Below, one piece after another: positions 2,798-47,008 of a DNA stretch of 64,000 nucleotides (within the stretch, counting starts at the first letter, position 1; each line of letters begins with the position of its first letter). A program made the position numbers and the translations under genes. Under the pieces are notes generated by a model, which was given only the letters and a program-made list of their open reading frames with translations, did no database searches and was not told the origin of the DNA. The stretch is taken from positions 21,434 through 85,433 of the forward strand of contig CAZDEP010000002.1 of assembly GCA_964504715.1 (NCBI GenBank), given 5' to 3'. The stretch is from an uncultured Candidatus Saccharibacteria bacterium (GTDB lineage Bacteria; Patescibacteriota; Doudnabacteria; UBA920).

Positions 2798-3748
2798 CTA
2801 CTTTGATAAGGCAAATAATTTTTTAGCATTCTCTGTGGTAATTTTTTCAACTTCCTCCAGTGATAGATTTTTAATTTTTGCCACTCTTTCCGCCACGTGC
2901 TTTACGTAAAGCGGTTCGTTGCGTTTGCCTCGGTGCGGGACGGGAGTCAAATACGGCGAATCGGTTTCTAGAACAATCCTGTCAATGGGAACAGTTTTAA
3001 CCACTTCTTCCATATTTCCGCTTTTATCGAATGTAATTATACCATTTAAACCCACATACGCGCCGCGCTTTATAAATTCCTGAACGATCCCCGGACTACC
3101 GGTAAAGGAATGGATTTCAAACCGCAACCCCTCCCCTTCCCTCCCCTCATAAGGGGAGGGAGTAAGGGAGAGGTGGGCTTCTTGATCTAAAATTTGAAGT
3201 ATATCCTCGTACGCGTCCTGTGAACCCGCGCTCGGCCGGCAATGAATTACCAAAGCTTTATTTGCCTCTTTCGCCAATCTGATTTGCTGGACAAACGCAT
3301 CTTTTTGCAGCTTTTTAATTTCCTGATGACGGTCTTCTTGCCCCGCAAGAAGACCGTCATCTTGCGGCAGGCGGTAGTAGTCAAGCCCGCATTCGCCAAT
3401 GCCTACTACTTTTGGACTGTCCGCAAGTTTCCGATACGCCTCAAAGTCAAATTTTTCTTCACGTGATAAAAAACTTGTCTCTTCTTCATCCAAATGCTGC
3501 GAATAAGTATGGACCGGATGCAGCCCTATTACCGCATAAACGCCACCCCTTCCTCTCTCCTCCCCCCTAGAGGGGGAGGAAGGGTAGGGGGGATATTTTT
3601 CAGCAAGATCAACGGCCTGGCGTGATGTATCGATCTGTGTACCCACGTTTACAACCCACACGCCCGCTTCCAAAGCCCGGCCAATGGTTTGGTCGACGTC
3701 TTCGGCAAAAGCCTTAAAATTCACATGGGCGTGAGTGTCTATAAGCAT
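2798..3748 (-). CDS. TatD-family metal-dependent hydrolase/DNase
   Basis: MLIDTHAHVNF... N-terminus and TatD-like length; contains two in-frame palindromic repeat insertions (PYPSSPSRGEERGRGG; LTPSPYEGREGEG) and an in-frame terminator-like hairpin (DDGLLAGQEDRH). Confidence 0.8.
   Translation of the reverse strand: MLIDTHAHVNFKAFAEDVDQTIGRALEAGVWVVNVGTQIDTSRQAVDLAEKYPPYPSSPSRGEERGRGGVYAVIGLHPVHTYSQHLDEEETSFLSREEKFDFEAYRKLADSPKVVGIGECGLDYYRLPQDDGLLAGQEDRHQEIKKLQKDAFVQQIRLAKEANKALVIHCRPSAGSQDAYEDILQILDQEAHLSLTPSPYEGREGEGLRFEIHSFTGSPGIVQEFIKRGAYVGLNGIITFDKSGNMEEVVKTVPIDRIVLETDSPYLTPVPHRGKRNEPLYVKHVAERVAKIKNLSLEEVEKITTENAKKLFALSK
3125..3176. repeat. Family-1 GC-rich palindromic element (copy A), in-frame in the tatD-like CDS
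   Basis: ctccccttccctcccctcataaggggagggagtaagggagagg. Confidence 0.8.
3326..3360. repeat. Family-3 terminator-type hairpin repeat located inside the tatD-like CDS (in-frame)
   Basis: atgacggtcttcttg-ccccg-caagaagaccgtcat has the same 15-bp arms as the 24452..24488 terminator; it encodes DDGLLAGQEDRH on the minus strand. Confidence 0.75.
3543..3593. repeat. Family-1-like palindromic element (copy B), in-frame in the tatD-like CDS
   Basis: cccttcctctctcctcccccctagagggggaggaagggtagggggg. Confidence 0.7.
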
Positions 3749-3768
3749 GAAGTAAGAAGTAAGAAAAA

Positions 3769-5256
3769 TTAAACGATCCGTGGAAATAAACGAGGAATAT
3801 TATTTTCTTCAAGATTTTCTAAAGCTTCTAAAATCTTTTTTGAGGTAAGAGGCAAAAACGGCTGCAATGTTAAAGCAATTTTGTACAGTTCTAAAAGCAA
3901 ATGTTCTATATCTTTTTTTGCCCCAGCCTCGTCGGTTTTTATTTTTTTAAACGGCTCGGTTTTTTGGATGTATTCGTCGCACTCGCCAACTTTTCGCCAA
4001 ATCCCATCCATCACGGCTTTCAAATTATACCCATTCAAATCCACGCCGCCTTCATTCTTAATTCTTAATTCATAATTCATAATTCCGGCGTTCGCTGCCA
4101 TTTTTAAAACCCTGGAAGTCAAATTCCCTATCCCGTTGGCCAAGTTGGCGTTGTAGCTTTCTATAAACCTCTCCCAGGTGTAGTCGCCGTCTTCAAAGGT
4201 GGAAATTTCTCGTAAAAGATAATACCTTAAAGCGTCTATTGCCTGCTCTTTGCTGAGGCCTTTTTGCTCCAGTTGGTTTAAAATTTGGTAGGGGTCGGCC
4301 ACATTGCCCAAAGACTTGGACATTTTTTGCCCGCCCGAAGTTATAAAACCGTGGATAATAATTTGGCGAGAGTTGGGCAGGCCGGCCGACATAAGCATCG
4401 CCTGCCACATTGCCGACTGCTGGCGCAAATTATCCTTGCCGGCAATTTGAACGGCATTGAGCTGTTCTTTCGTGCCCCAAAATTCCTCAAATTTTGATTT
4501 TTGATTTTTGATTTTTGATTTATCATCAGGCCAGCCTAGGGTTGAAACATAATTTATAAGCGCGTCGAACCACACATACATAACCTGCTTTTCGTCCCCC
4601 GGCACCGGCACGCCCCAGGGCATTTTTTCCTTCAGGCGCGAAATGGAAAAATCCTGCAGTCCCCTTTTGACGAATTCCTTTATTTCATTGAATCTAAAAT
4701 CCGGCACGACAAAATCGGGATATTTTTTGTACAAATCCAGAAGCGGCTGTTGGTATTTGGAAAAACGGAAAAAATAATTTTCTTCCTCAATGGTTTCTAT
4801 TTTCAAATTGGGATGGATGGGGCACTGCCCGTTTTCGTCCAAATCACTCTCGGTTTTTTCCAACTCGCAGCCCACGCAATATTTAACATGGTAATTTTTT
4901 TTGTATATATCCCCATTGTCCGAGCAGAGTTTCCAAAACTCCTGGCATGCCTGTTTGTGCCCGGCGTCGGTGGTACGGATAAAATGGATGTCCGGCAAAA
5001 CCCCCAGCGCCGGCATTAATTTTTTAAACTTTTCCGCGTATTCATCTACATAGCTTTGCGTGTCTTTGCCTTCCTCGGCGGCTTTCCGGTAAATTTTCAG
5101 GCCGTGTTCGTCGGTGCCTGTATTAAAAAACACTTCCTGGCCCAAGAGTTTATGGAAGCGCGCAATGGCGTCAGCCTGCACGATTTCCAATGCAAAACCC
5201 AAATGCGGGTCCGAATTCACATAGGGCAAAGTGGTGGTAATATAAAATTTGTCCAT
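3769..5256 (-). CDS. metG: Methionine--tRNA ligase (short form)
   Basis: TTLPYVNSDPHLGFALE (HIGH-variant), GTDEHGLKI, KMSKSLGN; 495 aa. Carries an in-frame family-2 repeat (GIMNYELRIKNEG) and a 7-mer tandem repeat. Confidence 0.9.
   Translation of the reverse strand: MDKFYITTTLPYVNSDPHLGFALEIVQADAIARFHKLLGQEVFFNTGTDEHGLKIYRKAAEEGKDTQSYVDEYAEKFKKLMPALGVLPDIHFIRTTDAGHKQACQEFWKLCSDNGDIYKKNYHVKYCVGCELEKTESDLDENGQCPIHPNLKIETIEEENYFFRFSKYQQPLLDLYKKYPDFVVPDFRFNEIKEFVKRGLQDFSISRLKEKMPWGVPVPGDEKQVMYVWFDALINYVSTLGWPDDKSKIKNQKSKFEEFWGTKEQLNAVQIAGKDNLRQQSAMWQAMLMSAGLPNSRQIIIHGFITSGGQKMSKSLGNVADPYQILNQLEQKGLSKEQAIDALRYYLLREISTFEDGDYTWERFIESYNANLANGIGNLTSRVLKMAANAGIMNYELRIKNEGGVDLNGYNLKAVMDGIWRKVGECDEYIQKTEPFKKIKTDEAGAKKDIEHLLLELYKIALTLQPFLPLTSKKILEALENLEENNIPRLFPRIV
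4053..4086. repeat. Family-2 AT-rich repeat (aattatgaattaagaatt core), in-frame in metG
   Basis: cattcttaattcttaattcataattcataattcc; the reverse complement encodes GIMNYELRIKNEG. Confidence 0.7.
4489..4521. repeat. Heptanucleotide tandem repeat (gattttt x ~4.5) inside metG
   Basis: aattttgatttttgatttttgatttttgattt, in-frame as DKSKIKNQKSKF. Confidence 0.7.
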
Positions 5257-5414
5257 GGTGTTTTAAAGGCTCACAAATCCCTTTTCCAACCCTACTGCAA
5301 TGCTTTCCGTAGTAGTTGCCTGATTTATCAGGCTATCGTGATAGGATGTTTAAAGGCTCACACTTACAGTGTGAGCCTTTAAATTATAGCGATTTTTAAG
5401 GGTTTAAACAAATT

Positions 5415-6419: not shown

Positions 6420-6444
6420 ATTATTTCACAAAAGCCGCCTAAAA

Positions 6445-6855: not shown

Positions 6856-7773
6856 TCAAACTTTGCCGCGCAAAGTTTTTAAAATTTTAATATCTGCTTT
6901 GACTTTATCATGCTCCGTTTCTAAAATCAAGGCCATAGCGGCGTCAGCCACCACTTTGGACTTCTCTCTCCCTTTGGAAGAGGGATAAGAGGGTGAGGGT
7001 TTAATATTTTTACCAAAATACCCCATAATTGCTTCAAAGCCCTTTTTGCCGATTTTGCCTTCCCCAATATGGTCGTGCCGGTCCTTTCTTTCACCCAAAT
7101 CCGGCTTGGAGTCGTTCATATGGCTCATTTTGAGCCATTTTAAGCCTATCACCTTGTCGAACTTGGAAAAAGTGGACTCCACAGCAGCGCTGTTGCGCAA
7201 ATCGTACCCGGCGGAAAAGGCATGCTGGGTATCAAAGCAAATGCCCCCAAAAGTTTTAAACTTTTCCAAAGGCTCCATGAGGTCAGCCAGTTCCTCAAAA
7301 GTGTCCCCTATTACGGAACCTGCGCCTGCGGCTATTTCCAAAAGGAATTGGGTTTCGCCGCTGCCGTACTTTTTTAAAACCTCTGCCAAGCCTTTTTTAG
7401 TTTGGGCAAAGGCTTCCTTTTCGCCCAAGTCCTTAAAGCTGCCCAAATGCGTCATGACGTATTTGGCGCCCAGGCTGCTGGCCCGTTTAAGCTCTTCCGA
7501 TACAACGCTTATGGAGCCGTGGTAGACATTGGGCTTGGCAGAACCAAAATTTACAAAATAAGGACAATGGACCACAAAATCACTAAGCTGATGGGCCTTC
7601 ATCTCATCTTTAAATCTTTTTATCGTTAAGTCATTCAATTCGGGCGCTTTCCCGCCCATAGGCGGACGGGTAAAAATTTGGAAAGCTTCGCAGCCCAAAG
7701 CCGCGGCGTTTTTTGGCGCATTCCATACTCCCCCGGCGGCTGAAACATGGCAACCGATACTAAAATTGACCAT
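6856..7773 (-). CDS. nfo: Endonuclease IV (AP endonuclease family 2)
   Basis: MVNFSIGCHVSAAGG...HCPYFVNFGS...MTHLGS... core motifs; a C-terminal ~20-aa insert (PSPSYPSSKGREKSK) is encoded by a degenerate CT/GA-rich palindrome. Confidence 0.85.
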   Translation of the reverse strand: MVNFSIGCHVSAAGGVWNAPKNAAALGCEAFQIFTRPPMGGKAPELNDLTIKRFKDEMKAHQLSDFVVHCPYFVNFGSAKPNVYHGSISVVSEELKRASSLGAKYVMTHLGSFKDLGEKEAFAQTKKGLAEVLKKYGSGETQFLLEIAAGAGSVIGDTFEELADLMEPLEKFKTFGGICFDTQHAFSAGYDLRNSAAVESTFSKFDKVIGLKWLKMSHMNDSKPDLGERKDRHDHIGEGKIGKKGFEAIMGYFGKNIKPSPSYPSSKGREKSKVVADAAMALILETEHDKVKADIKILKTLRGKV

Positions 7774-9357: not shown

Positions 9358-10491
9358 TTAATGAATAATATTGTCTTTTAAGCCAGTGCTTACATTAATA
9401 AATTTAAAGACTCGATCATTTTTTAAATATACCAAATCCTCAATTCTGATTCCACCAACGCCGCGGATATACACGCCAGGTTCAATGCTAAAAACCATAT
9501 TATCCCTTAAAATATCTTTCGAGCCTGGGGATAAATTCGGCAATTCATGAATTTCAAGGCCCGTACCGTGGCCTAAGGAATGGATAAAGAATTTGTCTAA
9601 TTTGGCTTCGGCGAGCACATTTACTGAGTGTTGATAAACATCACCGGCCTGTAAGTCGTAATGGGTGTACGGCCGCGCTTCGCGTATCGTTGTACGGCCG
9701 CGCTGCGCGTTGCGCGGGCCTATACGCGCCGCGCCGCCGATTAACGATAAACGCGAATCAATAACCTCCATTGATCCAATATACGCCCTTTCTACCTGGT
9801 TATAAGCTCTCTCTAACCGCGACGGCGCGCGTTTTAAAAATACCGTGCGAGTAAAATCACTGCAATAATTTTTGTACTTAAAACCAAAATCAATTATTAT
9901 CGATTCGCCGGGTTTTAGGCGCTTCGACGATGGAACATGATGCGGAATGGCCGCGTTTGCGCCGCTTGCCACAATTGCGGGGAAAGCCACGTCCTCGGCG
10001 CCGAATTTATACCCGGTATTGGTAATAAACTCCGCCAAACCTCTTTCAGTCCAGGATTTTTTCTTGAGCTGATTTTTTGCCATACCAAAAACTTTTTCCA
10101 CTATCTGCATGGATTTTTTTATTTTGGAAAGTTCGCCGGCATCTTTAATTTGGCGCATTTCATCCACCGGACTTCTGGCCGGCTTAGTCCTTAGCCCTAA
10201 AGCCTTAGCTCTCAAATAAGCCTCTTCCCCGAAAGTAAATCCCCACTCCAAATCCAATTTTTTACCTTTGATATATTTGCCAATATTTTTCAGCCTATCC
10301 GATTTTTTTACCCAATCGATATTCTCCAAACCCGATCCAAATCCCACAACCTCACGCTTTGTGACTAAAAGGTACTCTTCGGCCCTGTAATCAAAAGAAC
10401 GACCTGTTAAATAAAACAGGTTTTCTTTCTTTTTTATAAGGATAGGGTTTTTTAAAGCTGCTTGTATTTTCCTAATCCGTAAATTTTTCAT
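9358..10491 (-). CDS. M24-family Xaa-Pro aminopeptidase / prolidase-like
   Basis: C-terminal HSLGHGTGLEIHE...SIEPGVY...GGIRIEDLV pita-bread motifs; contains a GC-rich in-frame insertion (9667..9739). Confidence 0.8.
   Translation of the reverse strand: MKNLRIRKIQAALKNPILIKKKENLFYLTGRSFDYRAEEYLLVTKREVVGFGSGLENIDWVKKSDRLKNIGKYIKGKKLDLEWGFTFGEEAYLRAKALGLRTKPARSPVDEMRQIKDAGELSKIKKSMQIVEKVFGMAKNQLKKKSWTERGLAEFITNTGYKFGAEDVAFPAIVASGANAAIPHHVPSSKRLKPGESIIIDFGFKYKNYCSDFTRTVFLKRAPSRLERAYNQVERAYIGSMEVIDSRLSLIGGAARIGPRNAQRGRTTIREARPYTHYDLQAGDVYQHSVNVLAEAKLDKFFIHSLGHGTGLEIHELPNLSPGSKDILRDNMVFSIEPGVYIRGVGGIRIEDLVYLKNDRVFKFINVSTGLKDNIIH
9667..9739. repeat. GC-rich (~75% GC) palindromic or direct-repeat insertion inside the M24 peptidase CDS
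   Basis: gtacggccgcgct occurs twice; an inverted partner cggcggcgcggcgcgtat is present. Encodes GGAARIGPRNAQRGRTTIREARPYTH in-frame. Composition differs sharply from the flanking CDS. Confidence 0.5.
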
Positions 10492-10493
10492 TT

Positions 10494-10545
10494 TCTTCTC
10501 TCCCTCCCCTTCTGAGGGGAGGGATTAAGGGAGAGGTTGCGATTA
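10494..10545. repeat. Family-1 palindromic element (copy C), intergenic
   Basis: ttctctccctccccttctgaggggagggattaagggagaggttgcg fills the 51-bp gap between the M24 peptidase start and the DUF559 gene stop. Confidence 0.8.
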
Positions 10546-10926
10546 AACTAAACATGTTTGCTTAATTTTTTCCAATACTCCTTCAATATTTTTATCAACA
10601 TCAATATTCTGGAATCTTAAAACTTTATAACCGGACTTTTCAGCGTATTCCTGTTTTACTTTATCGTGAATTAAGTTAACCGGTTCGCTGTGCTGCCCCC
10701 CGTCTAATTCAATTAATAACATTTTACTTCGGCAACTAAAATCAAAAACATACGAGCCAATTTGGACTTGGCGCTTAAATGGCAACCCGTAAAATCTATT
10801 TGCTCTTAAATATTGCCACAATTTTATTTCCCAAGGATTTTTATTCTTTCTCAAATCTCTGGAATAAGTTAGGTAAGGCTCAGGGATAATGCGGTTCATA
10901 TGCAACCTCTCTGGCCTAAAGGCCAT
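10543..10926 (-). CDS. DUF559-type endonuclease-like domain protein (Vsr/restriction-endonuclease-like fold)
   Basis: WQYLRANRFYGLPFKRQVQIGSYVFDFSCRSKMLLIELDGGQHSE...YKVLRF is typical of DUF559; the likely true start is MNRII at ~10899. Confidence 0.6.
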   Translation of the reverse strand: MAFRPERLHMNRIIPEPYLTYSRDLRKNKNPWEIKLWQYLRANRFYGLPFKRQVQIGSYVFDFSCRSKMLLIELDGGQHSEPVNLIHDKVKQEYAEKSGYKVLRFQNIDVDKNIEGVLEKIKQTCLV

Positions 10927-11000
10927 CTCTCCTCAAAAGGAGAGAGAAAAGCTCTCTCCCTTCGACAAGCTCAGGGTACTCCTCCTATTCTAGGAGGAGA

Positions 11001-18370: not shown

Positions 18371-19408
18371 ATGGAAACTACCCCCTCCCCTACAAAGCCT
18401 AATATGAGCGGATTGCGCAAAGCCATTATGGACTTTTTGGAATACTGTGAAATCGGCAAAAACCAGAGCCGCAATACCATTGCGGCTTATTACCGCTACC
18501 TGGATAAATTTGAGCGCTTTGCCCAAGGCATTAAATTAAAAGATGCCAAAGACATTACCTTAGATGTAATTAACCGCTACCGGCTTTATTTAAACCGCCT
18601 GGAAGACGAAGACGGCCGGACACTTAAACTAATTACCCAAAACTACCATTTAATAGCCCTCAGGGCATTCTTAAAATACCTGACCAAGCAGGATGTTAAA
18701 ACCTTGTCCCCGGAAAAAATCGAATTGCCCAAAAACCCCCAACGGCAGGTGGAATTTTTGGAAAACGATGAACTGCAAAGGTTATTCGACGCCACCAACC
18801 AGGAAACGGACGAAACTTCCCGCTTAAGGGATTATGCGATTTTGCAGACTTTGTTTTCCACCGGCCTCCGCGTTTCCGAACTGGCTTCCCTCAAAAAGGA
18901 CAATATAAACCTCGAACGCCACGAATTTACCGTACGCGGCAAAGGCAGCAAGTTAAGGCTGGTGTTTTTAAGCGATACCGCGGCAGAAGCCATAAAAAAA
19001 TACCTGGCTAAACGCCGGGACAATAACAAGGCTTTGTTTATCGCCCATTCCAAAATCGGAGAATCAGTGGAAAAACAAATGGAAAGCCAACAGGCAACCT
19101 CTCCCCTTCCCTCCCCTCATAAGGGGAGGGTGGCCGAAGGCCGGGAGAGGTTGAGATTTTTTGGCCTGACTCCCCGCTCTATCCAACGGATTATTAAAAA
19201 ATATTGCCTGATTGCGGGGATCGTAAAAAAAGTGACCCCGCACACCCTCCGGCATTCCTTTGCGACGGACTTGCTGCAAAATGGCGCGGATATAAGGAGC
19301 GTGCAAACCCTTTTAGGCCACTCCTCCATAACCACAACCCAAATTTATACCCACATAACAAACCAGGGACTAAGGGACATTCATAAGAAATACCACAATA
19401 AGAAGTAA
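18371..19408 (+). CDS. Tyrosine site-specific recombinase (XerC/XerD-like)
   Basis: C-terminal HTLRHSFATDLLQNGADIRSVQTLLGHSSITTTQIYTHI (R..H..R..Y catalytic box); interrupted in-frame by palindromic element E (ATSPLPSPHKGRVAEGRERLRFF). Confidence 0.8.
   Translation: METTPSPTKPNMSGLRKAIMDFLEYCEIGKNQSRNTIAAYYRYLDKFERFAQGIKLKDAKDITLDVINRYRLYLNRLEDEDGRTLKLITQNYHLIALRAFLKYLTKQDVKTLSPEKIELPKNPQRQVEFLENDELQRLFDATNQETDETSRLRDYAILQTLFSTGLRVSELASLKKDNINLERHEFTVRGKGSKLRLVFLSDTAAEAIKKYLAKRRDNNKALFIAHSKIGESVEKQMESQQATSPLPSPHKGRVAEGRERLRFFGLTPRSIQRIIKKYCLIAGIVKKVTPHTLRHSFATDLLQNGADIRSVQTLLGHSSITTTQIYTHITNQGLRDIHKKYHNKK
19095..19153. repeat. Family-1 nested palindromic element (copy E), in-frame in the xerC-like CDS
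   Basis: caacctctccccttccctcccctcataaggggagggtggccgaaggccgggagaggttg. Confidence 0.85.
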
Positions 19409-19536
19409 GAGGTATGAAGCAAGAATTAAGGTTAAGACAAATCAAAAAGCCTACGTACATCTACGTAGGCTTTTTCAATTTCTGCGCCTCATGTTTTTCC
19501 CTTAATTCTTAATACTTAATTCTTACTTCTTGCTTC
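19399..19536. repeat. Inverted pair of family-2-related A/G-rich repeats flanking the 19444..19476 terminator
   Basis: aagaagtaagaggtatgaagcaagaattaagg (19399..19436) vs ccttaattcttaatacttaattcttacttcttgcttca (19499..19536). Confidence 0.55.
19444..19476. terminator. Bidirectional rho-independent terminator between convergent genes
   Basis: aaaaagcctacgta-catc-tacgtaggcttttt perfect hairpin with A/T runs on both sides; flanked by inverted family-2 repeats (19399..19436 and 19499..19536). Confidence 0.6.
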
Positions 19537-19720
19537 ACACGTACCATTTATAGTCGCTCATGGCTCGCATGGCTTCTTCCATGTCGACCTGGTACTCTGC
19601 CTGGGTTTCCTTGCTATAGACAGTCAGCGGTATTTGGCAGTAGGGACACACTCCCGCTTTTTCCCTGGAAAACCCGCAACTGTCGCACATATACATGTAA
19701 AAATTTTGCATATTTATCAC
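19535..19720 (-). CDS. small zinc-ribbon protein (61 aa)
   Basis: CDSCG...CPYC four-Cys pattern. Confidence 0.35.
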   Translation of the reverse strand: MINMQNFYMYMCDSCGFSREKAGVCPYCQIPLTVYSKETQAEYQVDMEEAMRAMSDYKWYV

Positions 19721-27495: not shown

Positions 27496-27614
27496 CCACC
27501 TAACCCCAATGCGTATCAGCAGTACAAAACGGGCGGATTAAATAACGCATAACGCCGCCGTAAAACGATACGCGCGGCGCTGACGTATAACATTACAAAA
27601 AACTACTATCCGCC

Positions 27615-37600: not shown

Positions 37601-39179
37601 GCGTGGTGCCGTTTATATTTTCGGTAATGGAAAAATATTGGTTTACGTTAGTGCTGTTGTCCCTGGTGAACCTCGCTACTTCGTTGCTATTTCCCACAAC
37701 ATGCAAAACCGAAACGGGACCACTCGTCCCAATACCAACATTGCCCGAACTGTAATAAATGCTTCCGTTCGTGGAAGTGGACCAGGTGGCGCCGGCTACG
37801 GAAATATTTGCCCAGGAAAGCTGGCCTGAGCCGTTGGTAACTAACACTTGGTTAGCCGAGCCATCCCCTCCCGGCCAAGCGTAAGCTATGCCGCCTAAAG
37901 TGGTCGTGGCAAAAGAAACCGTGCCGGTAAAGTTAGCGGCACCGGAAACATTTATTTGGTCGCTGACATTCAAAACATTTATTTGTGTCTTATCCGAAGA
38001 AAAATAAGTAAAAGAACCTATGGTGCCGTTGCCCGTGCCCCCGGGGTTGCTCGTATTCACATAGCCCAAACTCCATCCCCCGCCCTGAAGCGAAGAGCTC
38101 CCCGACGCCCCCTGCGCCCCCGTTTCGCCCCTTTCCCCTTTTTCACCCTTTTCCCCCTTGAATTTCCCTTCTGCCAAATATTGCTTTAAGCGCTCGTCCA
38201 CCAATTGACTTAAGGTGTTCGTGTCCACCGGGGCGATTGTTTCTCCCAACACCCTCCCGGAAATTTTGAGGGTTTTTTTCGGCAATTCCTTTAAGGAAAT
38301 TTTGGGAATGTAAATAGTCTCAACGATTTCCGGAGCTTGGAATTCGCTTCCGCCGAAGAACGGGGATTCCGACCAACGCGGCTTTTGCATTTGCAAAGCC
38401 AGCGCGTAAATTTTGCCTGCAGTTTTTTGGGCCTCGTCTAGGGCTGCGCGCTTAATTTGCAAAGGCGCGGATTTTATAACCTCGCCAAAGCCTTGTTTAA
38501 TTTCGGCCCAGCCCAAACGCGAAGGAAGGTTTTTTACTTTTTCCCACGCAAAAAGCCTTAGCTGCCTGCCGGCATTTGGTGCGGAAATTTTAGGGTCATT
38601 TGCGAAGGAAGGTTTTTTAAAAATAAAGGTATAAAATATTTTTTCTCCCGCGGCTTTCCCTTCTTTGCCAAAAAGGCTGCCGGAATAATCAGCGCGGGGT
38701 GCAACAATTGTCTTACCCAAAACTTTTGGCTGCCGGTTTTCCGCAACAAGCCTGGATGGCCCGTTTTGGTCGTGCGAAGCCAAAACCAGATTGGCTTTGC
38801 TTATTGCCGCGGTTTCATTTTTTGTTGACTGCTTATACCACAGGGTGGAAAAAACTATGCCGAAAATCAAAACCAAATGCGCGGCGGTTATGGCAAACCA
38901 CATGGGCCAGCGCGAGCTAAGTATACCGTAAGTTTTTCGCTTGCTTACCGAATCTACATTTTTTTTAGGCAAAGCTCCGCAGGCGCGGCACGATTCCATT
39001 GCCCTTAGCAGGTGCGCAAGACCTTCCACTTGGGGCAAATGGCTTTTAGGTATTGGCCGCGCAGGAATCATCTCCCGCAAAGAAACCGGTGGCACCCTGA
39101 CAGGCACAATAAACTTCAGTCCGGGCGGCATGTGGCGGCCGGGCCTGCCATATTTCAAAATCAAAAGCAGCCTTTTCAT
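31617..39179 (-). CDS. Giant (2520-aa) membrane-anchored fibre protein with collagen-like triplets, tail-fibre-like repeats and a Peptidase_S74 intramolecular chaperone domain
   Basis: Single uninterrupted ORF. N-terminal TM (WPMWFAITAAHLVLIFGIVFSTLWY). GEKGEKGERGETGAQGASG collagen-like stretch (nt ~38100..38160). YAWPGGDGSANQVLVTNGSGQLSW phage-fibre-like motif. About 19 repeats with core (S/T)GNVGIGTTSPxxxLHV. ASDRNLKENF...WNYKREDASITHLGPTAQDFYASFGL...VALVGIKALDEKINSLQ (S74 chaperone, nt ~32290..32560), then about 225 aa with a P/E/T-rich tail. The true start codon is uncertain (MPPGL, MESCRAC and MWFAI are alternatives). Confidence 0.9.
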   Translation of the reverse strand: MKRLLLILKYGRPGRHMPPGLKFIVPVRVPPVSLREMIPARPIPKSHLPQVEGLAHLLRAMESCRACGALPKKNVDSVSKRKTYGILSSRWPMWFAITAAHLVLIFGIVFSTLWYKQSTKNETAAISKANLVLASHDQNGPSRLVAENRQPKVLGKTIVAPRADYSGSLFGKEGKAAGEKIFYTFIFKKPSFANDPKISAPNAGRQLRLFAWEKVKNLPSRLGWAEIKQGFGEVIKSAPLQIKRAALDEAQKTAGKIYALALQMQKPRWSESPFFGGSEFQAPEIVETIYIPKISLKELPKKTLKISGRVLGETIAPVDTNTLSQLVDERLKQYLAEGKFKGEKGEKGERGETGAQGASGSSSLQGGGWSLGYVNTSNPGGTGNGTIGSFTYFSSDKTQINVLNVSDQINVSGAANFTGTVSFATTTLGGIAYAWPGGDGSANQVLVTNGSGQLSWANISVAGATWSTSTNGSIYYSSGNVGIGTSGPVSVLHVVGNSNEVARFTRDNSTNVNQYFSITENINGTTLLANSATSNQKPLIINVANSGGGVSAGTMYTDFQIGGTSVMTLKGSNVGIGTTSPIALFNVTASTTTDTIPVFINNIGSAGGAGMLISRSSNTRAAQIQFGLGSIPEWYLGELRNNGNAVGGLSIGQGSNTAAFTPALFLSNTYNKVGINTSSPSVSLSVVASSTVDILDIASSSGASYLRVTSAGNVGIGTTSPLDALHVYKASNGNVTGLILDNDGGASSGTGQAVRFRYSATGANLGGIYNVYDGTNWYLRFKTWTGSAEQERLTIQGNTGNIGIGTTAPSGLLHIYGTQATAYIDYSSTNGFFGLKHAGVDKGLVGLAGGANNLSLGSVQDDLVIRSASGNILFSTNAGAATQMYIKNDGNVGIGTTSPSQLLTVGNNNQFTVSSAGDINGLTATIGTNSVLPVIVSCPGCTSGSGNPAGTYTYAGRYNNYNYYKLVGGNWYLWNNGDPSWRITPVLGNLSVEWYSGIIAGQIPPYTSSWSTYGGTSGTLTTSAGSSTQLVVDSSGNLVTGGTISVGTGNSYLLGNVGIGTTSPLAKLDVYGNLNVATSSTSVLFANTGTSRVGIGTSTPGDTLHIVTTSAFAGLTVQSTNDVGVNIKSQAGNGAELKFTTQGLHLFARANSSNLFIGNSGGTVEMIGINGSVSSPNSVVIGRQGAAQTIGNGTLLVYDGTAATGVTTLNIQEGAGQGATSTLSILANNGTTTRLTVLGTSGNVGIGTGTPLASLHVQGSGSSNMFTISSSTGAHVLTVFPSGNIGIGAVGTGNGLAPNSKLYITYADGSSNSVTNGLTLNNIAGQPGNFVGMRLGLYSGNDTSQKQFIGAVQATNGSGGTGDIVFLTITNGGSAYQQVAAADEKMRITNYGNVGIGTTSPQTALHVASSGSTTLRIDGGATSLPQIQFTQGSNLRGYLFYDNTYGLMTLNRTGNSGSGLVVNASDNVGIGTSSPIAKLDVYGNLNVATSSTSTFYVNTATGKTSINALLLPTLAGGGMQCLRVDNSGNVITAGIDCGASGGSLAGGVKGYVATWASSTGLTVGTLIDNGTVSGVNATSSTVSFLVQGTGTLNPFQVNSSTGTSLLTVTPSGNVGIGTTAPNYLQENYLSANGWGMVVTRASGASVGLYVDTTGGYLQTTGPKTLGLGANGGSAITILNGNNKIGFNNSSPTYTVDIKGSGTIDPFNVASSSGTSLMVITNQGNVGIGTTDPAKILDIQAPTADTQIKSTTSTNYVISRWINGNNQLQIGLDRSTGGIFGTGSLPYAAAINVWQNYPLQFGTNSVMRMTIEGGGNVGIGTTSPSALLHVGGGSVRGTFIVEGSTADIPYIQLKDGKAGGKTWTMYSGLNNAGDFALYDNSAAATPFTVKQSTGNVGIGTTSPATLLHMEGASAQLRIATNNDSSPRMSFYSGSGNVSDRNWMIADGLTTRGALEFKVGSASGVAPATDVMSILSNGNVGIGTTGPSHKLHVAGTGSTDSYYGLARFSPSAAGGESEIGFFDDVAGTDTNDAWVIGQGGWSNTGDFIIGNENNGAGGNVRLLIEKSGNVGIGTTSPATTLDVNGTTTMRGALLFGTDNTWDIGASGANRPRNLYLSNALSVSSITAAATVGFGGGRGGAGAGIANGADASVYATAGKSLELWADATAGRGIEILTGTGNVGVGTTTPTLGPLTMASGAYVTAGGTWTNASDRNLKENFASVTPASILEKIVNLPIAKWNYKREDASITHLGPTAQDFYASFGLGGSDTAISTIDPSGVALVGIKALDEKINSLQQTVSNLQNTGSDVDPQAPIVFKTQVYLSQDSVGQAKILAGSKRVKVTFTKPYEYQPIVTATPLDFVSGAYRIASTTAEGFTIELKYVQDEDVTFNFHAFASPEAKLTVSDGQVLGITLTLPFTESGTNQPAEVTPSAGEGVGQEESAPSQPAEAALTPATEASVVPDVQTEPAPESEIVVPESQTTPEEITPEPSMPPAEQPTNDIAPQDPVPSGESGLGAASVGVE
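34702..35991. repeat. Intragenic near-identical direct repeats inside the giant gene (for example a 47-bp copy at 34702..34748 and 35934..35991, plus ~17 copies of the ggactcgtcgtcccaatgccaacgttgcc motif)
   Basis: Seen directly: gatgttgatgatgtagcaacatttaagtttccatacacatccaact occurs twice; the GNVGIGTT-encoding 30-mer recurs with 80-100% identity through 32970..37750. Confidence 0.8.
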
Positions 39180-39688: not shown

Positions 39689-40564
39689 ATGCCTACCATT
39701 TGCTTCGGCCAACAGCCCAACGGCTTTTTCCCCAAAAACTTTTTTGTCGCTAAAATTCTAACAGCCCAAAAACTCCAAAAAGATTTGGGCGGCAAGATAG
39801 CGTTTTTTTACCATGACTCCGACGCCGACTACCGCGAAACCGTAACTGTCTTAAAAGACAAAGCCACGGGCTCGGAAGTACGCCTGAACTTTTTTCAGGA
39901 AAATAAAATCCAAAAAAATTTTTCGCCGCTGTATGCAAAAAGGATAGTCCCCTCCCCCACAGCGGAAGGGAAAGGAGTGGAAGGCTGGAAAGAAGAAATT
40001 TTAAAACAGCTACCGAGGTTTATTCACCCTCCCCTAACCCCTCCCCTCAAGGGAGGGGAAACTACTGCATCCCCCTCTGCTTTAAGCGAAGGACAAGGCT
40101 TGGACTTGATTGATATTTTTAAATCCGTAGATGCCAATACCGTCGCGGATTTCTGCCTGGAGATATACAAAAAAATGGGCTTGCTGGAAGGAGTGGAAAT
40201 TTACCGATCTTCCGACAAAAATTTCCGGCTCAACGCTTTAGATTTAAGCCAGGAATACTTTGCCGACATTCTTTACCAAAACGAAGCTGTCCGGGCAAAA
40301 AAAACTTCTAACGGCTTTCAGCTCCACAAAGGCGGCGGGCAATTTATAGACCTGCCCGAAGAGCCCGTGGAAAAAACCCAAAAGACCCCCGCTGCCAAAG
40401 AACGCTTTGCCTGGATGAACAGCGTCATAAACTGCACCCACTATATTTACGGCGAAGGCGAAGCGCAGTATATGGACTTTAAGGAACATCCTAAGGTACA
40501 ATTCATTCAGCGCGATATAATTGATAACCCGACCCTCGCTTGGTTATCTACCCTTAATTCATAA
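39689..40564 (+). CDS. hypothetical protein (291 aa) upstream of the bshB-like gene, carrying an in-frame palindromic element
   Basis: MPTICFGQQPNGFFP...; insert HPPLTPPLKGGETTASPSA is encoded by element F. Confidence 0.45.
   Translation: MPTICFGQQPNGFFPKNFFVAKILTAQKLQKDLGGKIAFFYHDSDADYRETVTVLKDKATGSEVRLNFFQENKIQKNFSPLYAKRIVPSPTAEGKGVEGWKEEILKQLPRFIHPPLTPPLKGGETTASPSALSEGQGLDLIDIFKSVDANTVADFCLEIYKKMGLLEGVEIYRSSDKNFRLNALDLSQEYFADILYQNEAVRAKKTSNGFQLHKGGGQFIDLPEEPVEKTQKTPAAKERFAWMNSVINCTHYIYGEGEAQYMDFKEHPKVQFIQRDIIDNPTLAWLSTLNS
40023..40077. repeat. Family-1 palindromic element (copy F), in-frame in hypothetical CDS
   Basis: caccctcccctaacccctcccctcaagggaggggaaactactgcatccccctc. Confidence 0.8.
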
Positions 40565-40578
40565 TTCATACTTCTATG
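40552..40578. repeat. Family-2 repeat at a gene junction (stop of 39689..40564 / start of the bshB-like gene)
   Basis: ccttaattcataattcatacttctatg. Confidence 0.55.
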
Positions 40579-41268
40579 AAGATACTTGCAATCGGCGCCC
40601 ATCCGGACGACATTGAATTCGGAGTCGGCGGGCTAATTATTAAAGAAGCCGAAAAAGGTTCGGAGATTTTGTATGCCATAGGCTCGCTGGGCGAAGCCGG
40701 AACTTCGGGCACGCCCGAAGAACGCCGGCAGGAAGCCGAAGATGCCGCCAAGATAGTCGGGGCAAAAGTGGAATTTTTGGATTTGGGAGGCGACTGCCAC
40801 ATGACCGACTCCCCTGCCAATGCCATAAAGATTGCCGAAGTCATCCGCCGCTTTAAGCCGGAAGTTGTCCTCGCGCCTTCCCAAACAGAAAACCAGCACC
40901 CGGACCACAAAGTTATTTCCGACCTGGCCCGCGTCGCCTGCCGCCTGGCCAGATACGGCGGCTTAACGGAAGTAAAGCATTTGCCTGTGCATAAAATTAA
41001 CGGCCTCTACTTCTACCCTTCCGGCGCGGAATGGGACAAGCGTCCGGACATAATAATAGACATGAGCGGCGTTTACGAAAAGTGGGAGCAGGCCATGTCC
41101 GCCCACAAAAGCCAAATGAAAACCCGGGAGTACTTAAACCTAGTGGGCAGCAAGGCCGCGGCTTTGGGCGCCTCGGTGGGCGTAAAATACGCCATTGGCC
41201 TCTGGACCAACGACCCCATACGCTTAAATAATTTGTCAGATATCACACTGTCTTCCAGAAACTATTAA
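40576..41268 (+). CDS. PIG-L/LmbE-family N-acetylglucosaminyl deacetylase (BshB-like)
   Basis: MKILAIGAHPDDIEFGVGG...HPDH metal-binding motifs. Confidence 0.75.
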   Translation: MKILAIGAHPDDIEFGVGGLIIKEAEKGSEILYAIGSLGEAGTSGTPEERRQEAEDAAKIVGAKVEFLDLGGDCHMTDSPANAIKIAEVIRRFKPEVVLAPSQTENQHPDHKVISDLARVACRLARYGGLTEVKHLPVHKINGLYFYPSGAEWDKRPDIIIDMSGVYEKWEQAMSAHKSQMKTREYLNLVGSKAAALGASVGVKYAIGLWTNDPIRLNNLSDITLSSRNY

Positions 41269-42833: not shown

Positions 42834-43568
42834 TCAGGGCGTTTTTTTATTTTCCACTATTTCCCCCGCTTTAATTTCTATTTTATCCGCAATCCTCAAA
42901 TTGCGGATTTGTTTTGGATTTAAGATCCGGAAGTGTTTTATTTCGTCCAGGTAATCGGGTATGTAAAAAAGGTTTTGCGATGAAATCCGCCAGTTAACAT
43001 CCTCCTTCGCCTTCCCCATGGCGGAAAGGGAAACTTCCAATTCCCCTCCCTTGAGGGGAGGGGTTAGGGAAGGGTGATGGTCAAAATACCCCAAATCAAA
43101 CGGTCTTGAGTATTCGCGCAAAGTTTTTCGGCCCTTGGAGTCGAAATATTCGTGGAAATAAGACATGGCCAATTCCCGCACAGACTTGTAAACCGGTTCG
43201 CGGTACCTTAAAACCGCGTGGTTGGTTTTGCTAATCGCACCCCAATGCCCAAACTGTTTGAACACGGCAACCACATGGTCGAAGTCATGCTCCTCTGACC
43301 TTAAGTCCAAAACCAAAGGGCGGTGGCCGTGAAATTCCAAAATTGCCGCGGCCAGCATGGCGCCTTCCATGCAGTGCGCGGATTTATTTTTTATTGCCGA
43401 ACGCGGACTGAAACACGTGTTCCCTTTTTCTTCAAAATTAAATTTTAGACCATTCAAATAGCTTTGAATATCTTTTGGCGAATTGAGCCTCTTAAACAAC
43501 CCCAATTCATATGAATTGTAGCCTTTTTTATATTCAAGGTTTCTCATATGCGCCAATATCCGTACCAC
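42834..43568 (-). CDS. transglutaminase-like / papain-fold cysteine peptidase superfamily protein
   Basis: SAHCMEGAMLAAAILEFHGHRP...HDFDHVVAVF (Cys...His...Asp spacing); in-frame insert HHPSLTPPLKGGELEVSLSA from element G. Confidence 0.45.
   Translation of the reverse strand: MVRILAHMRNLEYKKGYNSYELGLFKRLNSPKDIQSYLNGLKFNFEEKGNTCFSPRSAIKNKSAHCMEGAMLAAAILEFHGHRPLVLDLRSEEHDFDHVVAVFKQFGHWGAISKTNHAVLRYREPVYKSVRELAMSYFHEYFDSKGRKTLREYSRPFDLGYFDHHPSLTPPLKGGELEVSLSAMGKAKEDVNWRISSQNLFYIPDYLDEIKHFRILNPKQIRNLRIADKIEIKAGEIVENKKTP
43028..43083. repeat. Family-1 palindromic element (copy G; reverse orientation of F), in-frame in transglutaminase-like CDS
   Basis: aaacttccaattcccctcccttgaggggaggggttagggaagggtgat; its reverse complement shares ccctaacccctcccctcaagggagggga with F. 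Confidence 0.8.
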
Positions 43569-45900: not shown

Positions 45901-45970
45901 ACAACTTTCCTATCACTTATAAAGATTATATCGTGATTCCTTGAATAAAAAAAGTGTTCGAAAACCATGC

Positions 45971-47008
45971 TTATTTCCGTGCTTTTTCTATCCCGTGCCC
46001 GCCGAACTGTTTCCTTAATAACGCCACAATTTTATTGGAAAACTTGTTTTGGTTTTTGGGGTCTTTGGATTCTTTCCGCACATTCACGGAATCTTCCAAA
46101 ACCCTTACATCCACGCCAAGTTCTTTGCCGGCTTGTACCGTCCATTCCCCTTCACCCAGCATATTTATTTCGCCCTTGGTATTTTCCAAATCTTCCTTTT
46201 CAAAAATATTTTTTACCAAATCAATAAGCCAGCTGCGGATTACCGAACCTTGCTGGTAAATGGCGGTCAGTTGGTTAAAATCGTAATCGAATTCAGAAGC
46301 CTTAAGCACCCCGTAGCCTTCGCCAATGGCTTCCATCATCCCGTATTCAATGCCGTTGTGGGCCATCTTGGCAAAGTGTCCCGCGCCGTTCTTGCCCAAG
46401 AGGCCGTAATTTTCTCCGGCGGATAATGCTTTAAAAATCGGCTCCACCAAAGGCCACTCTTCTTTTGGCCCGCCGACCATAAGCGCAAAACCGTTCTCCT
46501 CGCCCCACACGCCGCCGCTTGTGCCGCAATCATAAAAGACCACACCCTTTTCGCCCAGCTCTTTTCCGCGCTTAAGGGAATCTTTATAAAAACTGTTACC
46601 GCCGTCTATAATAATGTCGCCCGCGCGAAGATGCGGACCTAACTGATCGGTTAAAAAATCGCCTATGATATTTGAAGGCAGCATTAACCAAAAAACTCTT
46701 GGCTGGTCAGCCATAAGGTTGACTAAATCGGGCACATTGTCAAAAGAACGGGACAACAACCTCTCCCCATCCCTCCCCTTATGAGGGGAGGGTGTTCCGC
46801 CTTTTGGCGGGACGGGAGAGGTAGCGGCTACAAAATCGTCAAACTCTTTCCGCGGGCCATCTGAACGATTCCACGCCAAAACTTCAAAATTATTTTTCTT
46901 CAGACGGCGGGCGATTTGCGCGCCCATTTTCCCTAAACCAAAAATTGCAATTTGCATATTATTTATTCTGTCACTCTGACCTAACTTGGCTAAAGTTTCG
47001 TCGTGCAA
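45971..47008 (-). CDS. gnd: 6-phosphogluconate dehydrogenase (decarboxylating), short ~300-aa form
   Basis: MQIAIFGLGKMGAQIARRL (the likely true start, ~46954) and GTSGGVWGEENGFALMVGG...GAGHFAKMAHNGIEYGMMEAIGEGY; in-frame insert TSPVPPKGGTPSPHKGRDGERLLS from element H. Confidence 0.8.
   Translation of the reverse strand: MHDETLAKLGQSDRINNMQIAIFGLGKMGAQIARRLKKNNFEVLAWNRSDGPRKEFDDFVAATSPVPPKGGTPSPHKGRDGERLLSRSFDNVPDLVNLMADQPRVFWLMLPSNIIGDFLTDQLGPHLRAGDIIIDGGNSFYKDSLKRGKELGEKGVVFYDCGTSGGVWGEENGFALMVGGPKEEWPLVEPIFKALSAGENYGLLGKNGAGHFAKMAHNGIEYGMMEAIGEGYGVLKASEFDYDFNQLTAIYQQGSVIRSWLIDLVKNIFEKEDLENTKGEINMLGEGEWTVQAGKELGVDVRVLEDSVNVRKESKDPKNQNKFSNKIVALLRKQFGGHGIEKARK
46756..46826. repeat. Family-1 nested palindromic element (copy H; near-identical architecture to E), in-frame in gnd
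   Basis: caacctctccccatccctccccttatgaggggagggtgttccgccttttggcgggacgggagaggtagcg. Confidence 0.85.

Follow-up and report, generated by a model that had tools for sequence, protein, structure and literature searches.

The window (the whole 64,000-nucleotide stretch of DNA that was analysed) raises the question of how short palindromic repeats came to lie in-frame, six times over, inside ordinary genes of a Patescibacteria bacterium with a tiny genome, and what carries them about. The repeats belong to a known but unexplained family; the new point is that the intergenic copy D is among repeats that bracket a DUF559 gene, an arrangement that recurs in numerous other bacteria. The reading developed below, which as a whole is probably correct, is that the elements are a branch of the triplex-motif (TM) family, that the in-frame inserts have been filtered by reading frame, and that DUF559 is a candidate partner of the repeats.

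The repeat family and its relatives

The GC-rich palindromic repeat family is confirmed in the window. The core CCCTCCCCT-N{3,5}-AGGGGAGGG has four exact matches (3139, 10502, 19109 and 46771) and none in 100 shuffles, and 11 perfect pyrimidine-to-purine hairpins are observed versus 0.43 expected, with a stem length of at least 8 in nine hairpins (3138, 3558, 10501, 10926, 10979, 19109, 40038, 43043 and 46771). Judged by the core matches and by the hairpin scan against chance, all seven clear copies of the first-pass annotation (designated here A, B and D to H) are real; the degenerate copy that it placed at 6963-7000 has a fold no more stable than that of shuffled sequence (z -0.58) and is not supported. 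The core-plus-block pattern is far above chance and the folds are stable (z-scores versus shuffles of -3.7 for A, -2.0 for B, -3.3 for D, -6.3 for E and -7.7 for H). Beyond the seven copies, there are two family hairpins 5' of the DUF559 gene and a decayed one at approximately 39947-39985.

The elements in the window are 45 to 81 nt long. Each unit is built of a pyrimidine arm, a loop of 4-5 nt and a complementary purine arm, followed by a second purine block (GGGAGAGGT in the window) that approximately mirrors the first purine arm. Copy D (10494..10545, plus strand; hairpin CCCTCCCCT-TCTG-AGGGGAGGG, followed by ATTAA and GGGAGAGGTTG) is a one-sided unit. Copies A (3125..3176; tail' CAACCCCTCCCC, hairpin CCCTCCCCT-CATA-AGGGGAGGG, loop AGTAA, purine block GGGAGAGGT), E (19095..19153) and H (46756..46826) have a block on both sides and a long outer stem closing the hairpin; E and H consist of tail', hairpin, a small nested GC hairpin (TGGCCGAAGGCCG and TTCCGCCTTTTGGCGGGA, respectively) and purine block. 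Copy B (3543..3593) is a divergent variant with the hairpin CCTCCCCCC-TAGA-GGGGGAGG; no strand is assigned to A, B, E or H. E and H, previously described as nearly superimposable, are indeed 86-97% identical over 37 nt (19095 versus 46756), both with the nested second hairpin, and have opposite orientations relative to their host genes. The subfamily of F and G in opposite genomic orientation also stands (40023 versus 43028, 97% complementary over 37 nt), but the extent given to its members does not, since both are inverted doublets of approximately 81 nt with a decayed second half: F (40023..40103, minus strand; tail' CACCCTCCCCTAA, hairpin CCCCTCCC-CTCAA-GGGAGGGG, spacer, second half) and the F-type doublet G (42999..43079, plus strand).

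The order of pyrimidine arm, loop, purine arm and second purine block is that of BoxC/PIT/TMECO; the window elements form a branch of the BoxC, PIT or TM repeats in Patescibacteria (Candidatus Doudnabacteria-like), and the family is not new, as the names BoxC, PIT and TMECO 'triplex motif' exist already (PMC4666352). The TMECO repeats of Holder et al. (2015), who cite earlier BoxC and Hoyne/Maher work, are short, G/C-rich and occur in E. coli, other Proteobacteria and Cyanobacteria (PMC4666352). Like the window elements, BoxC/PIT/TMECO repeats have a C-rich arm of 9 nt, then a G-rich arm and a second G-rich block, each preceded by a short loop, and are multi-copy and dispersed, at times in inverted pairs, with closely similar sequences in distant taxa. 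In the E. coli elements the second purine block provides the third strand for an intrastrand triplex, and the window elements may form such a triplex too; neither in double-stranded DNA nor in vivo did Holder et al. observe the triplex (PMC4666352). The strict TMECO consensus CCCTCNCCC-N3-6-GGGNGAGGG-N3-GGGNGAGGG has no match in the window. Loop 2 is 5 nt or holds a nested hairpin in the window copies versus 3 nt in published TMECO, a block flanks the hairpin on either side in several window copies, and the host genome belongs to Patescibacteria. Of the seven window copies, six are intragenic, whereas the 23 TMECO copies of E. coli K-12 are all intergenic (PMC4666352).

A genome scan, which gives a sample of the taxonomic picture, found the exact core in at least 120 genome loci, those listed coming from Proteobacteria, Cyanobacteria, Bacteroidota, Chloroflexota, Acidobacteriota and several Patescibacteria classes. 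In nearly all of these listed loci the core is accompanied by the one-sided block YN-GGGG(T/A)GGGGT, and the two together occur in many groups that carry BoxC/PIT/TMECO. In-frame copies are also present in real non-CPR proteins.

A DUF559 gene bracketed by repeats

The sole intergenic copy of the seven, as it had been correctly described, is D, which abuts the DUF559 gene directly 3' of its stop codon and lies 5' of the start of an M24 peptidase. The DUF559 gene (10543..10899, minus strand; Pfam PF04480, E 5e-32; PDB 3hrl, E 2e-18) encodes a protein of Vsr/EDxHD-type nuclease fold (118 aa from ATG 10899, 127 aa if the start is 10926) that scores under the cut-off of the NCBIfam YcjD model, and the gene is supported by a gene call in L001. 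On its 5' side is a repeat cluster (10900..10999, minus strand) with the hairpins TCTCTCCT-CAAA-AGGAGAGA (10926-10945) and CTCCTCCT-ATTCT-AGGAGGAG (10979-10999), a small GC hairpin GGCCTTTAGGCC and a purine block AGAGAGGTTGCAT abutting the DUF559 ATG. A purine block next to the DUF559 start codon could be no more than a ribosome-binding site, and the hairpins could be stabilisers or terminators.

DUF559 is the top recurring neighbour family of the core matches (9 of 120 among the loci listed). In an independent set of 35 distinct DUF559 loci, fetched through protein similarity alone, a hairpin is present upstream of the gene in 26, downstream in 28 and on both sides in 20, and hairpin density is 5.3 per kb in the DUF559 flanks versus 0.14 per kb in the remainder of those loci, a 37-fold enrichment. 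The gene is bracketed by inverted copies with their purine blocks toward it, a geometry that is consistent across loci, and the arms flanking one DUF559 gene are more alike than arms from different loci. Both the repeats and their adjacency to DUF559 extend across phyla, the hairpin-plus-DUF559 arrangement recurring in CPR bacteria, Gammaproteobacteria and Cyanobacteria. E. coli K-12 ycjD has a canonical, pattern-perfect TMECO adjoining it; Holder et al. (2015) report no associated gene, and 'ycjD' and 'endonuclease' are absent from their text (PMC4666352). E. coli genomes have approximately 18 TM-like places with ycjD versus approximately 10 without it, in a comparison that ignores phylogeny, and some genomes without ycjD still have 15-21 copies. 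The position of DUF559 is syntenic within clades; thus, the gene itself is not hopping.

The repeats are non-autonomous and have spread by copying within the genome, and the small DUF559 nuclease is proposed as their partner enzyme, which may recognise or cleave the hairpin-plus-block structure and thereby drive copying or gene conversion among copies. DUF559 is put forward as a candidate partner nuclease with a possible catalytic role in the spread. A less probable account, which still deserves serious consideration, is that the repeats are real and inserted but were mobilised by a Y1/RAYT or other transposase elsewhere, by slippage or template switching at hairpins, or by ectopic gene conversion, and that DUF559 does not mobilise them: its gene would home into them or exploit them as a ribosome-binding site, a terminator or an operator, or the nuclease would process structures formed by the repeats, in repair instead of spread. 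Consistent with this account are the Shine-Dalgarno-like purine block 5-20 nt before the ATG, the stable position of DUF559 within clades, the E. coli genomes with up to 21 copies and no ycjD, and the link that Holder et al. draw between the motif and local instability, with no enzyme invoked (PMC4666352). A ribosome-binding role, however, leaves the mirror-image copy 3' of the stop codon unexplained, and the recurrence of the arrangement in CPR bacteria, Gammaproteobacteria and Cyanobacteria argues against this account. A Y1 transposase is present in relative L004, but the hairpin at its flanks is of another kind (AGCCGATWWATCGGCT); no Y1/RAYT transposase is found near any copy in about 170 loci.

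DUF559 as proposed partner of the repeats has a counterpart in the REP/REPIN elements with their RAYT (Y1, IS200-like) transposase (PMC3116915, PMC3337134), which likewise are short hairpins, rich in GC, next to a single-stranded flank that is conserved, occur as singlets and inverted doublets, and combine many orphan copies with one bracketed gene that is single-copy and vertically inherited within clades. The bracketed gene encodes a PD-(D/E)XK/Vsr-type nuclease in the window versus an HUH Y1 transposase in RAYT systems; the window repeats lack the GTAG/CGTC tag, and REPs are extragenic. DUF559 shares its fold and nuclease domain family with I-Bth0305I and other EDxHD/Vsr-like homing endonucleases, selfish-element enzymes with sequence-specific DNA cleavage (PMC3239194). 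Those enzymes reside in group I introns or inteins and have extra DNA-binding parts, whereas the DUF559 genes are free-standing, encode approximately 118 aa and have hairpin-repeat flanks.

Inserts within reading frames

Intact ORFs contain six of the copies, all in-frame and stop-free, with encoded peptides exactly as first quoted, and no copy breaks a frame. The TatD-family hydrolase (2798..3748, minus strand; Pfam PF01026, E 2.5e-70, homologue alignment and AlphaFold model) contains copy A at aa 191-208 (AHLSLTPSPYEGREGEGL) and copy B at aa 52-69 (PPYPSSPSRGEERGRGG); its gene also has a palindrome unrelated to the family (3323-3367). Copy E occupies aa 242-261 (ATSPLPSPHKGRVAEGRERL) of a XerC/XerD-like tyrosine recombinase (18371..19408, plus strand; Pfam PF00589, E 4e-43, and PDB alignments), and copy F is in a 291-aa conserved hypothetical protein (39689..40564, plus strand), which also holds the decayed pyrimidine/purine hairpin. 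Copy G (HHPSLTPPLKGGELEVSLSAMGKAKED) is in a 244-aa conserved hypothetical protein (42834..43568, minus strand), whose earlier label 'transglutaminase-like' has a sub-threshold Pfam match (E 0.018) as its only support. Copy H (AATSPVPPKGGTPSPHKGRDGERLL) is in a short-type 6-phosphogluconate dehydrogenase (6PGDH; 45971..46957, minus strand; Pfam, PDB and an insert-free orthologue in relative L172), which probably starts at ATG 46957 although the ORF reaches 47008.

The window is approximately 86% coding and six of the nine strong hairpins are inside ORFs; thus, the elements are not excluded from genes, and most copies land in ORFs. Every copy has stops in two to four of the six frames, and the host reads an open one. 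In the opposite orientation none of the three frames of the F/G type is open, so survival alone suffices to explain why F and G have the same orientation relative to their hosts. Surviving copies are in permissive loops, with lengths that are multiples of three and a stop-free frame and orientation, and hence would be translated as P/S/G/E/R-rich disordered loops.

The inserts are lineage-specific, at recurrent variable loop sites in TatD, the XerC-like recombinase, 6PGDH and the two hypothetical proteins. Orthologues, in which the same segments would have pointed to native sequence, lack them or are differently filled at the site. Insert-free homologues exist for TatD and the 291-aa protein, the copy G site is without an insert in 59 of 120 homologues of the 244-aa protein, and in the XerC family the insert is confined to the 95% and 86% relatives plus a few others. 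Among 120 TatD homologues, four hot spots have at least 8 extra residues in 25, 14, 47 and 10 proteins, and at one TatD site two close relatives have a heptamer-type sequence where the window has an element. Placement of the inserts in loops is shown by their positions relative to solved structures (6PGDH, XerC-like) and by the AlphaFold model of TatD, in which they are low-confidence coil. Neither a target-site duplication nor a target motif was found at the copies.

It is improbable that the peptides are the selected feature (flexible or interaction loops, for example in an episymbiont) and the DNA palindromy secondary: all three A/E/H-type copies share the PSP-x-x-GR reading frame and the same loop sites are repeatedly filled in homologues, but other genomes have the same DNA in intergenic positions, on both strands and in all three frames (PSPxxGR, LPLxGEG, PPLxRGG), close relatives have fillers of unrelated sequence at one and the same site, the inserts are modelled as low-confidence coil, and they decay after insertion (PSPHKGR to PSLQKGK in the 86% relative). 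Hardly credible is the notion that the segments are native low-complexity linkers that only look repeated, or are removed from mRNA or protein before maturity: in its favour, every homologue has a variable linker at these sites, but unrelated genes have palindromic 37-nt stretches of 86-97% identity in common, splicing would make filtering by frame and stops needless, a search for Rfam intron or ribozyme matches gave none, and inserts of 15-27 aa have no intein-like domain.

The earlier comparison with Rickettsia palindromic elements (RPEs) stands as an analogy. RPEs, reportedly described by Ogata et al. in 2000 and 2002, resemble the window elements in that palindromic repeats have entered conserved proteins in-frame in a reduced genome, where they are tolerated as additional surface segments and lack target-site duplication. 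They are about 100-150 bp long and, to our knowledge, restricted to Rickettsia, whereas the window elements are unrelated in sequence, shorter, and of a family found across phyla; we know of no partner gene for RPEs. The small dispersed repeats (SDR) of Nostoc and the GC clusters of yeast mitochondria are structured repeats of 20-80 nt that can be nested within each other, accompany heptamer tandem repeats or be part of coding sequence. We know of no proposal of a nuclease partner for them; they are like the window elements in being very small structured repeats, and unlike them in sequences and hosts.

Repeat copies and their residence in genes

The GC-rich palindromic elements first noted in the window belong to a structured multi-copy repeat family that is nearly the same across phyla, filtered for reading frame within genes and concentrated around DUF559 genes. 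The window (~45% G+C, with no HIP1 sites) contains the core CCCTCCCCT-N3-5-AGGGGAGGG four times, versus none in 100 shuffles, and 11 perfect hairpins in which a 5' arm made up wholly of pyrimidines pairs with a 3' purine arm were found by scanning, versus 0.43 expected. In nine of them the stem is 8 nt or longer (3138, 3558, 10501, 10926, 10979, 19109, 40038, 43043 and 46771). All seven copies that the first-pass annotation had called clear are present (A at 3125, B at 3543, D at 10494, E at 19095, F at 40023, G at 43028 and H at 46756), and in the hairpin scan their stems measure 8-10 nt and their loops 4-5 nt; they are dispersed and include near-identical members. Copies E and H are indeed almost superimposable, each with a nested second hairpin, and their folds are far more stable than those of shuffled sequences (z -6.3 and z -7.7, respectively), and copies F and G are rightly grouped as one type, with 37 nt in common at 97%. 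A probable degenerate copy proposed at 6963-7000 has a fold no more stable than those of shuffled sequences (z -0.58) and was dropped. Rfam at gathering thresholds identified only five tRNAs in the window, and no match covers the elements.

Six copies lie within intact ORFs and encode exactly the peptides originally quoted. The host genes are those of TatD (PF01026, copies A and B), a XerC/D-type recombinase (E), a short-type 6-phosphogluconate dehydrogenase (H) and two conserved hypothetical proteins of 291 aa (F) and 244 aa (G), one of which had been labelled transglutaminase-like on what proves to be a sub-threshold match. Stop codons occur in two to four of the six frames of each copy, and the open frame is the one that is read. 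In the F/G type all three reverse-orientation frames are closed by stops, which accounts for the orientation that F and G do share relative to their host genes. The window is ~86% coding, and the presence of six of the nine strong hairpins in ORFs equals the expectation for random placement; thus, the elements are not excluded from genes, merely filtered afterwards.

By the names of its homologues, the host belongs to Patescibacteria, close to Candidatus Doudnabacteria. The window copies are very probably inserted repeats. Orthologous sites are empty or differently filled in relatives, and the insertions first suspected therefore stand. The lengths of TatD homologues vary between 278 and 361 aa, with the variation located at four hot spots, at which 25, 14, 47 and 10 of 120 homologues have at least 8 extra residues; many have no insert. 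Codon alignments of the window with three relatives (L002, L004 and L005) have a mosaic pattern: at the copy-A site the element is found in the window and L004, and a short heptamer-type sequence in L002 and L005, while the copy-B site is empty in L005 and holds a different palindrome in L004. The insert is missing from the 6-phosphogluconate dehydrogenase of a relative (L172) and from homologues of the 291-aa protein. In the family of the 244-aa protein, 59 of 120 homologues have no insert and the remainder carry, at that very position, fillers of 7-66 aa; the site is empty in one relative (L170) and carries a full doublet in another (L171). In the XerC family every member has a variable linker at the site, and the element is present in relatives at 95% and 86%, where it is decaying, and in a few others. 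Comparison with solved structures places the extra residues between aligned blocks, and an AlphaFold model of TatD (mean pLDDT 81) shows the inserts as low-confidence coil leading from a helix to the next strand.

The analogy drawn at first with Rickettsia palindromic elements (RPE) is sound, in that the window copies are inserted in frame into conserved protein genes without disruption. RPE families are ~100-150 bp long; the window elements, of 45-81 nt and in Patescibacteria rather than Rickettsia, are set apart by host and length. Through the in-gene copies, selfish DNA would reshape the proteins of reduced genomes in a manner like that in Rickettsia.

Affinity with the BoxC/PIT/TM repeats

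Repeats of the BoxC/PIT/TM family have been on record since the 1990s and number thousands of copies over hundreds of genomes; no function, mobiliser or origin is known for them. The window units follow a like module order and have the same arm and loop dimensions (~9 nt and 3-6 nt, respectively). The pattern AGGGGAGGG-N3-21-GGGAGAGGT has six matches in the window versus none expected, the second loop being 5 nt or a nested hairpin, compared with 3 nt as published. The tails that had been taken for outer stems correspond to the second purine block of the family, which copies A, E and H have on both strands and copies F and G on a single side, in the form of its C-rich complement. Read from the sequence, the block is a mirror of the purine arm but for one position, and its role in a triplex is putative.

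The BoxC repeat of E. coli was later named the PIT element and then the TMECO triplex motif, with the pattern CCCTCNCCC-N3-6-GGGNGAGGG-N3-GGGNGAGGG (Holder et al. 2015, PMC4666352). There are 23 copies in strain MG1655, all intergenic, and 3610 TM copies in 262 proteobacterial genomes, together with many G/C-rich motifs in cyanobacteria (PMC4666352). A TM single strand forms a stable triplex in vitro, but none was detected in duplex DNA or in vivo; TM elements raise local instability, lack promoter or terminator activity and are linked neither to mobile elements nor to gene classes (PMC4666352). The strict TMECO pattern, which is matched by two further loci besides the ycjD-fabI spacer of E. 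coli, has no match in the window; since the modules correspond, the window copies are classed as a sister variant and not TMECO proper.

A scan of a 596-Gb collection with one genome per species found the exact core at 120 or more loci, for which simple arithmetic with uniform composition gives a chance expectation of ~9 matches. The matches listed derive from Gamma-, Beta-, Alpha- and Deltaproteobacteria, Cyanobacteria, Bacteroidota, Chloroflexota, Acidobacteriota and several classes of Patescibacteria, and nearly all of them conserve a one-sided extension (...AGGGGAGGG-YN-GGGG(T/A)GGGGT). Copies in Saccharibacteria (L091, L086 and L065) are almost identical to those of the window, outer arms included. 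Six of the seven window copies are inside ORFs, in contrast to the intergenic copies of E. coli. The exact core is also in frame in an Eco57I-type methylase of Thiothrix (two clusters), in RND pumps of Gallionella and a Nitrosomonadales genome, and in a radical-SAM protein; thus, an always intergenic location is a property of E. coli, not a rule of the family. Long ORFs spanning the repeats in GC-rich loci (L036, L098, L009, L056 and L062) are antisense artefacts and were discarded as coding evidence.

Because the element class was already known under other names, the window family is not categorically new. New within the literature searched are the host, which belongs to the candidate phyla radiation (CPR), the routine in-frame residence and the bracketing of DUF559 genes; publications outside subscription journals yielded no palindromic or in-frame repeats in Patescibacteria. 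The BoxC/PIT/TM family now extends to this phylum, and its copies, which would add disordered loops, are tolerated within essential genes in CPR and occasionally in Proteobacteria.

DUF559 genes bracketed by the repeats

The single intergenic copy, recognized as such from the outset, is D, directly 3' of the stop codon of a DUF559 gene (10543-10899, 118 aa; PF04480, 110 bits versus a cut-off of 20.6; PDB 3hrl, E 2e-18) in which the core residues E64, D66, H70 and D79 (E..D...H...D) are invariant. The sequence upstream of this gene holds two more hairpins and a small GC hairpin, together with a purine block abutting the ATG. DUF559 is the commonest neighbouring protein family among the 120 or more core loci listed; it occurs in nine of them, always no more than ~150 nt from the core and with no further occurrence in the rest of these loci, with hosts that include Saccharibacteria, another Patescibacteria genome, Methylobacter, Thiotrichaceae and two cyanobacteria. 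The geometry is constant, with a hairpin and then a purine block upstream and the complementary block and then a hairpin downstream, so that the purine blocks face the gene; some loci have whole doublets on both sides.

An independent set of 44 metagenome loci (35 distinct) was collected by protein similarity only, with three CPR-type query sequences that bias it towards CPR-like DUF559 genes; it also includes loci with GC-rich flanks (e.g. L148 and L158-L160). A perfect pyrimidine/purine hairpin lies within 150 nt of DUF559 upstream in 26 of the 35 distinct loci, downstream in 28 and on both sides in 20, and hairpin density is 5.3 per kb in the flanks versus 0.14 per kb in the remainder of the same loci. 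Arm sequences vary by lineage (CCCTCCCCT, CCCTCTCC, CTTCTCCT, CCCCTCCCCC), and arms on the two sides of one gene are more similar (0.82) than arms of different loci (0.73; permutation p 0.0004), a figure that clade structure inflates. The nested small GC hairpin that precedes the purine block in copies E and H recurs in DUF559 flanks.

E. coli K-12 ycjD is a DUF559 gene, and a pattern-perfect TMECO lies in the ycjD-fabI spacer, which we take to be the place of the first BoxC description, next to envM/fabI. The gene is carried by 3378 of 5426 complete E. coli genomes. In an evenly spaced genome sample, ycjD-positive strains have ~18 TM-like places (range 12-25, n=37) versus ~10 in ycjD-negative strains (range 1-21, n=23; Mann-Whitney p 5e-7, uncorrected for phylogeny). 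A search of E. coli for a clean empty site of the ycjD cassette found none, and the cassette boundaries are unreadable because another island adjoins fabI in strains without ycjD. Neither ycjD nor any endonuclease is mentioned by Holder et al. 2015 (PMC4666352), and the publications on DUF559, represented mostly by titles and abstracts, reveal no link to repeats.

The DUF559 nuclease may recognise the hairpin with its purine block and, by nicking or cutting, promote copying or gene conversion among repeat copies. Such copying would account for the lack of target duplications, the repeated occupation of the same loop sites, the likeness of copies within a genome (E/H and F/G) versus the different fillers at orthologous sites in relatives, and the sequence common to distant phyla. 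That DUF559 is the catalytic partner of the repeats is tentatively proposed, at rather less than even odds; that YcjD and its relatives are dedicated nuclease partners of BoxC/TM repeats throughout Bacteria is proposed at similar odds. The principal alternative keeps the repeats and makes the relation passive or regulatory, through use as RBS or terminator, homing into repeats, or repair of repeat structures. The Vsr/EDxHD nuclease group, to which DUF559 belongs, also includes a characterised homing endonuclease, I-Bth0305I (PMC3239194).

If DUF559 proteins are such dedicated partners, they and the repeats would constitute another system of the REP-RAYT kind, with a Vsr/EDxHD nuclease in place of the HUH transposase, and this would explain the origin and within-genome uniformity of an orphan repeat first described in the 1990s, its near-identical sequence across phyla and its entry into proteins of gene-dense CPR genomes. 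The two systems have in common hairpin singlets, inverted doublets and one bracketed single-copy gene, which, like RAYT, is syntenic within clades and differently placed between clades; they differ in that the bracketed gene is DUF559, not RAYT. The bracketing provides a directly testable hypothesis for the old repeat, with ycjD of E. coli K-12 as candidate gene. Mobilisation by a Y1/RAYT transposase was rejected: no homologue (Y1_Tnp, PF01797) is present in the window or beside any copy in ~170 loci, and the sole Y1 gene seen (in L004) is flanked by a different hairpin. The copies also differ from MITEs, of which terminal inverted repeats and target-site duplication are the hallmark: the direct repeats that flank them are no stronger than those around random positions, and a 9-nt repeat beside copy H (one mismatch) is matched at 9-14% of random positions.

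Other features of the window and related loci

In four loci of Gammaproteobacteria and Cyanobacteria (L023, L045, L051 and L111), the DUF559 cassette directly follows a gene with an HsdS-like C-terminus, resembling a type I restriction specificity subunit, and HsdS-like ORFs are the second commonest neighbour among the core matches listed. A link of DUF559 to defence systems was considered and rejected, the only match being a marginal one to DpdF. The E. coli K-12 locus between ycjD and fabI (L173, 5240-5420) has a partial duplicate of the ycjD 3' end between ycjD and TMECO, a hairpin-like CCCTCTCCC...GAGGGGG overlapping the ycjD stop codon, and a palindrome with a 17-bp stem (TCACCTCATTCTGACAA...TTGTCAGAATGAGGTGA) upstream of ycjD. 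The Y1 gene of L004 (3402-3930, 137 aa, PF01797), which is IS200-like and lies beside the TatD gene of that relative, is bracketed by the hairpin AGCCGAT-WW-ATCGGCT and may represent a separate REP/RAYT-type system in Patescibacteria.

Repeat-derived inserts of at least three families in the window inflate and diversify CPR protein sequences and can mislead alignment, orthology calls and structure prediction. In the gene of the 291-aa protein, SPTAEGKGVE is encoded by a decayed pyrimidine/purine hairpin (CCCCTCCCCC-ACAGC-GGAAGGGAAAGG, 39947-39985) that is missing from every aligned homologue. A second, unrelated palindromic family (GACGGTCTTCTTGC-N3-GCAAGAAGACCGTC; 3323-3367, 56983-57018 and 58891-58934) has one in-frame copy in TatD (PQDDGLLAGQEDRHQ), also found in L002 and missing in L004 and L005, and two intergenic copies just after or between genes. 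Tandem heptamers (AATTCTT/AATTCAT; 4050-4095, 17791-17822, 18061-18106, 19400-19546 and 40560-40591) are in frame as ...NYELRIKNE... in a MetRS-like gene and in ORF 17165-18157, and the heptamer-type peptide RIKNEELGxxN fills the TatD and XerC loop sites of relatives. A GC-rich ACGGCCGCGC-type repeat (9668-9751) is in frame in an M24 peptidase (RLSLIGGAARIGPRNAQRGRTTIREARPY), where it splits the Pfam match, and has related intergenic copies at 27403-27429 and 27544-27587.

An inverted pair, TTCTTGTCCGACGAAGCCTTGGCGAAGTCGGAGGCA, occupies 2653-2688 and 17732-17767; the copy in ORF 17165-18157 reads FLSAKALAKAEA, and similar peptides (SADLSAAALAKAEALAKAG) fill the fourth TatD hot spot in four homologues (P0004, P0013, P0040 and P0044). 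Two further TatD homologues (P0078 and P0103, of the L078/L103 type) have a long insert beside a duplicated host segment (RFEVHS(Y/F)T ... RFEIHSFT), which hints that host-sequence duplication may accompany some insertions. A 2520-aa ORF on the minus strand (31617-39179) contains ~13 internal repeats at a spacing of ~240-330 nt, with the common motif GGACTCGTCGTCCCAATCCCAACGTTGCC.
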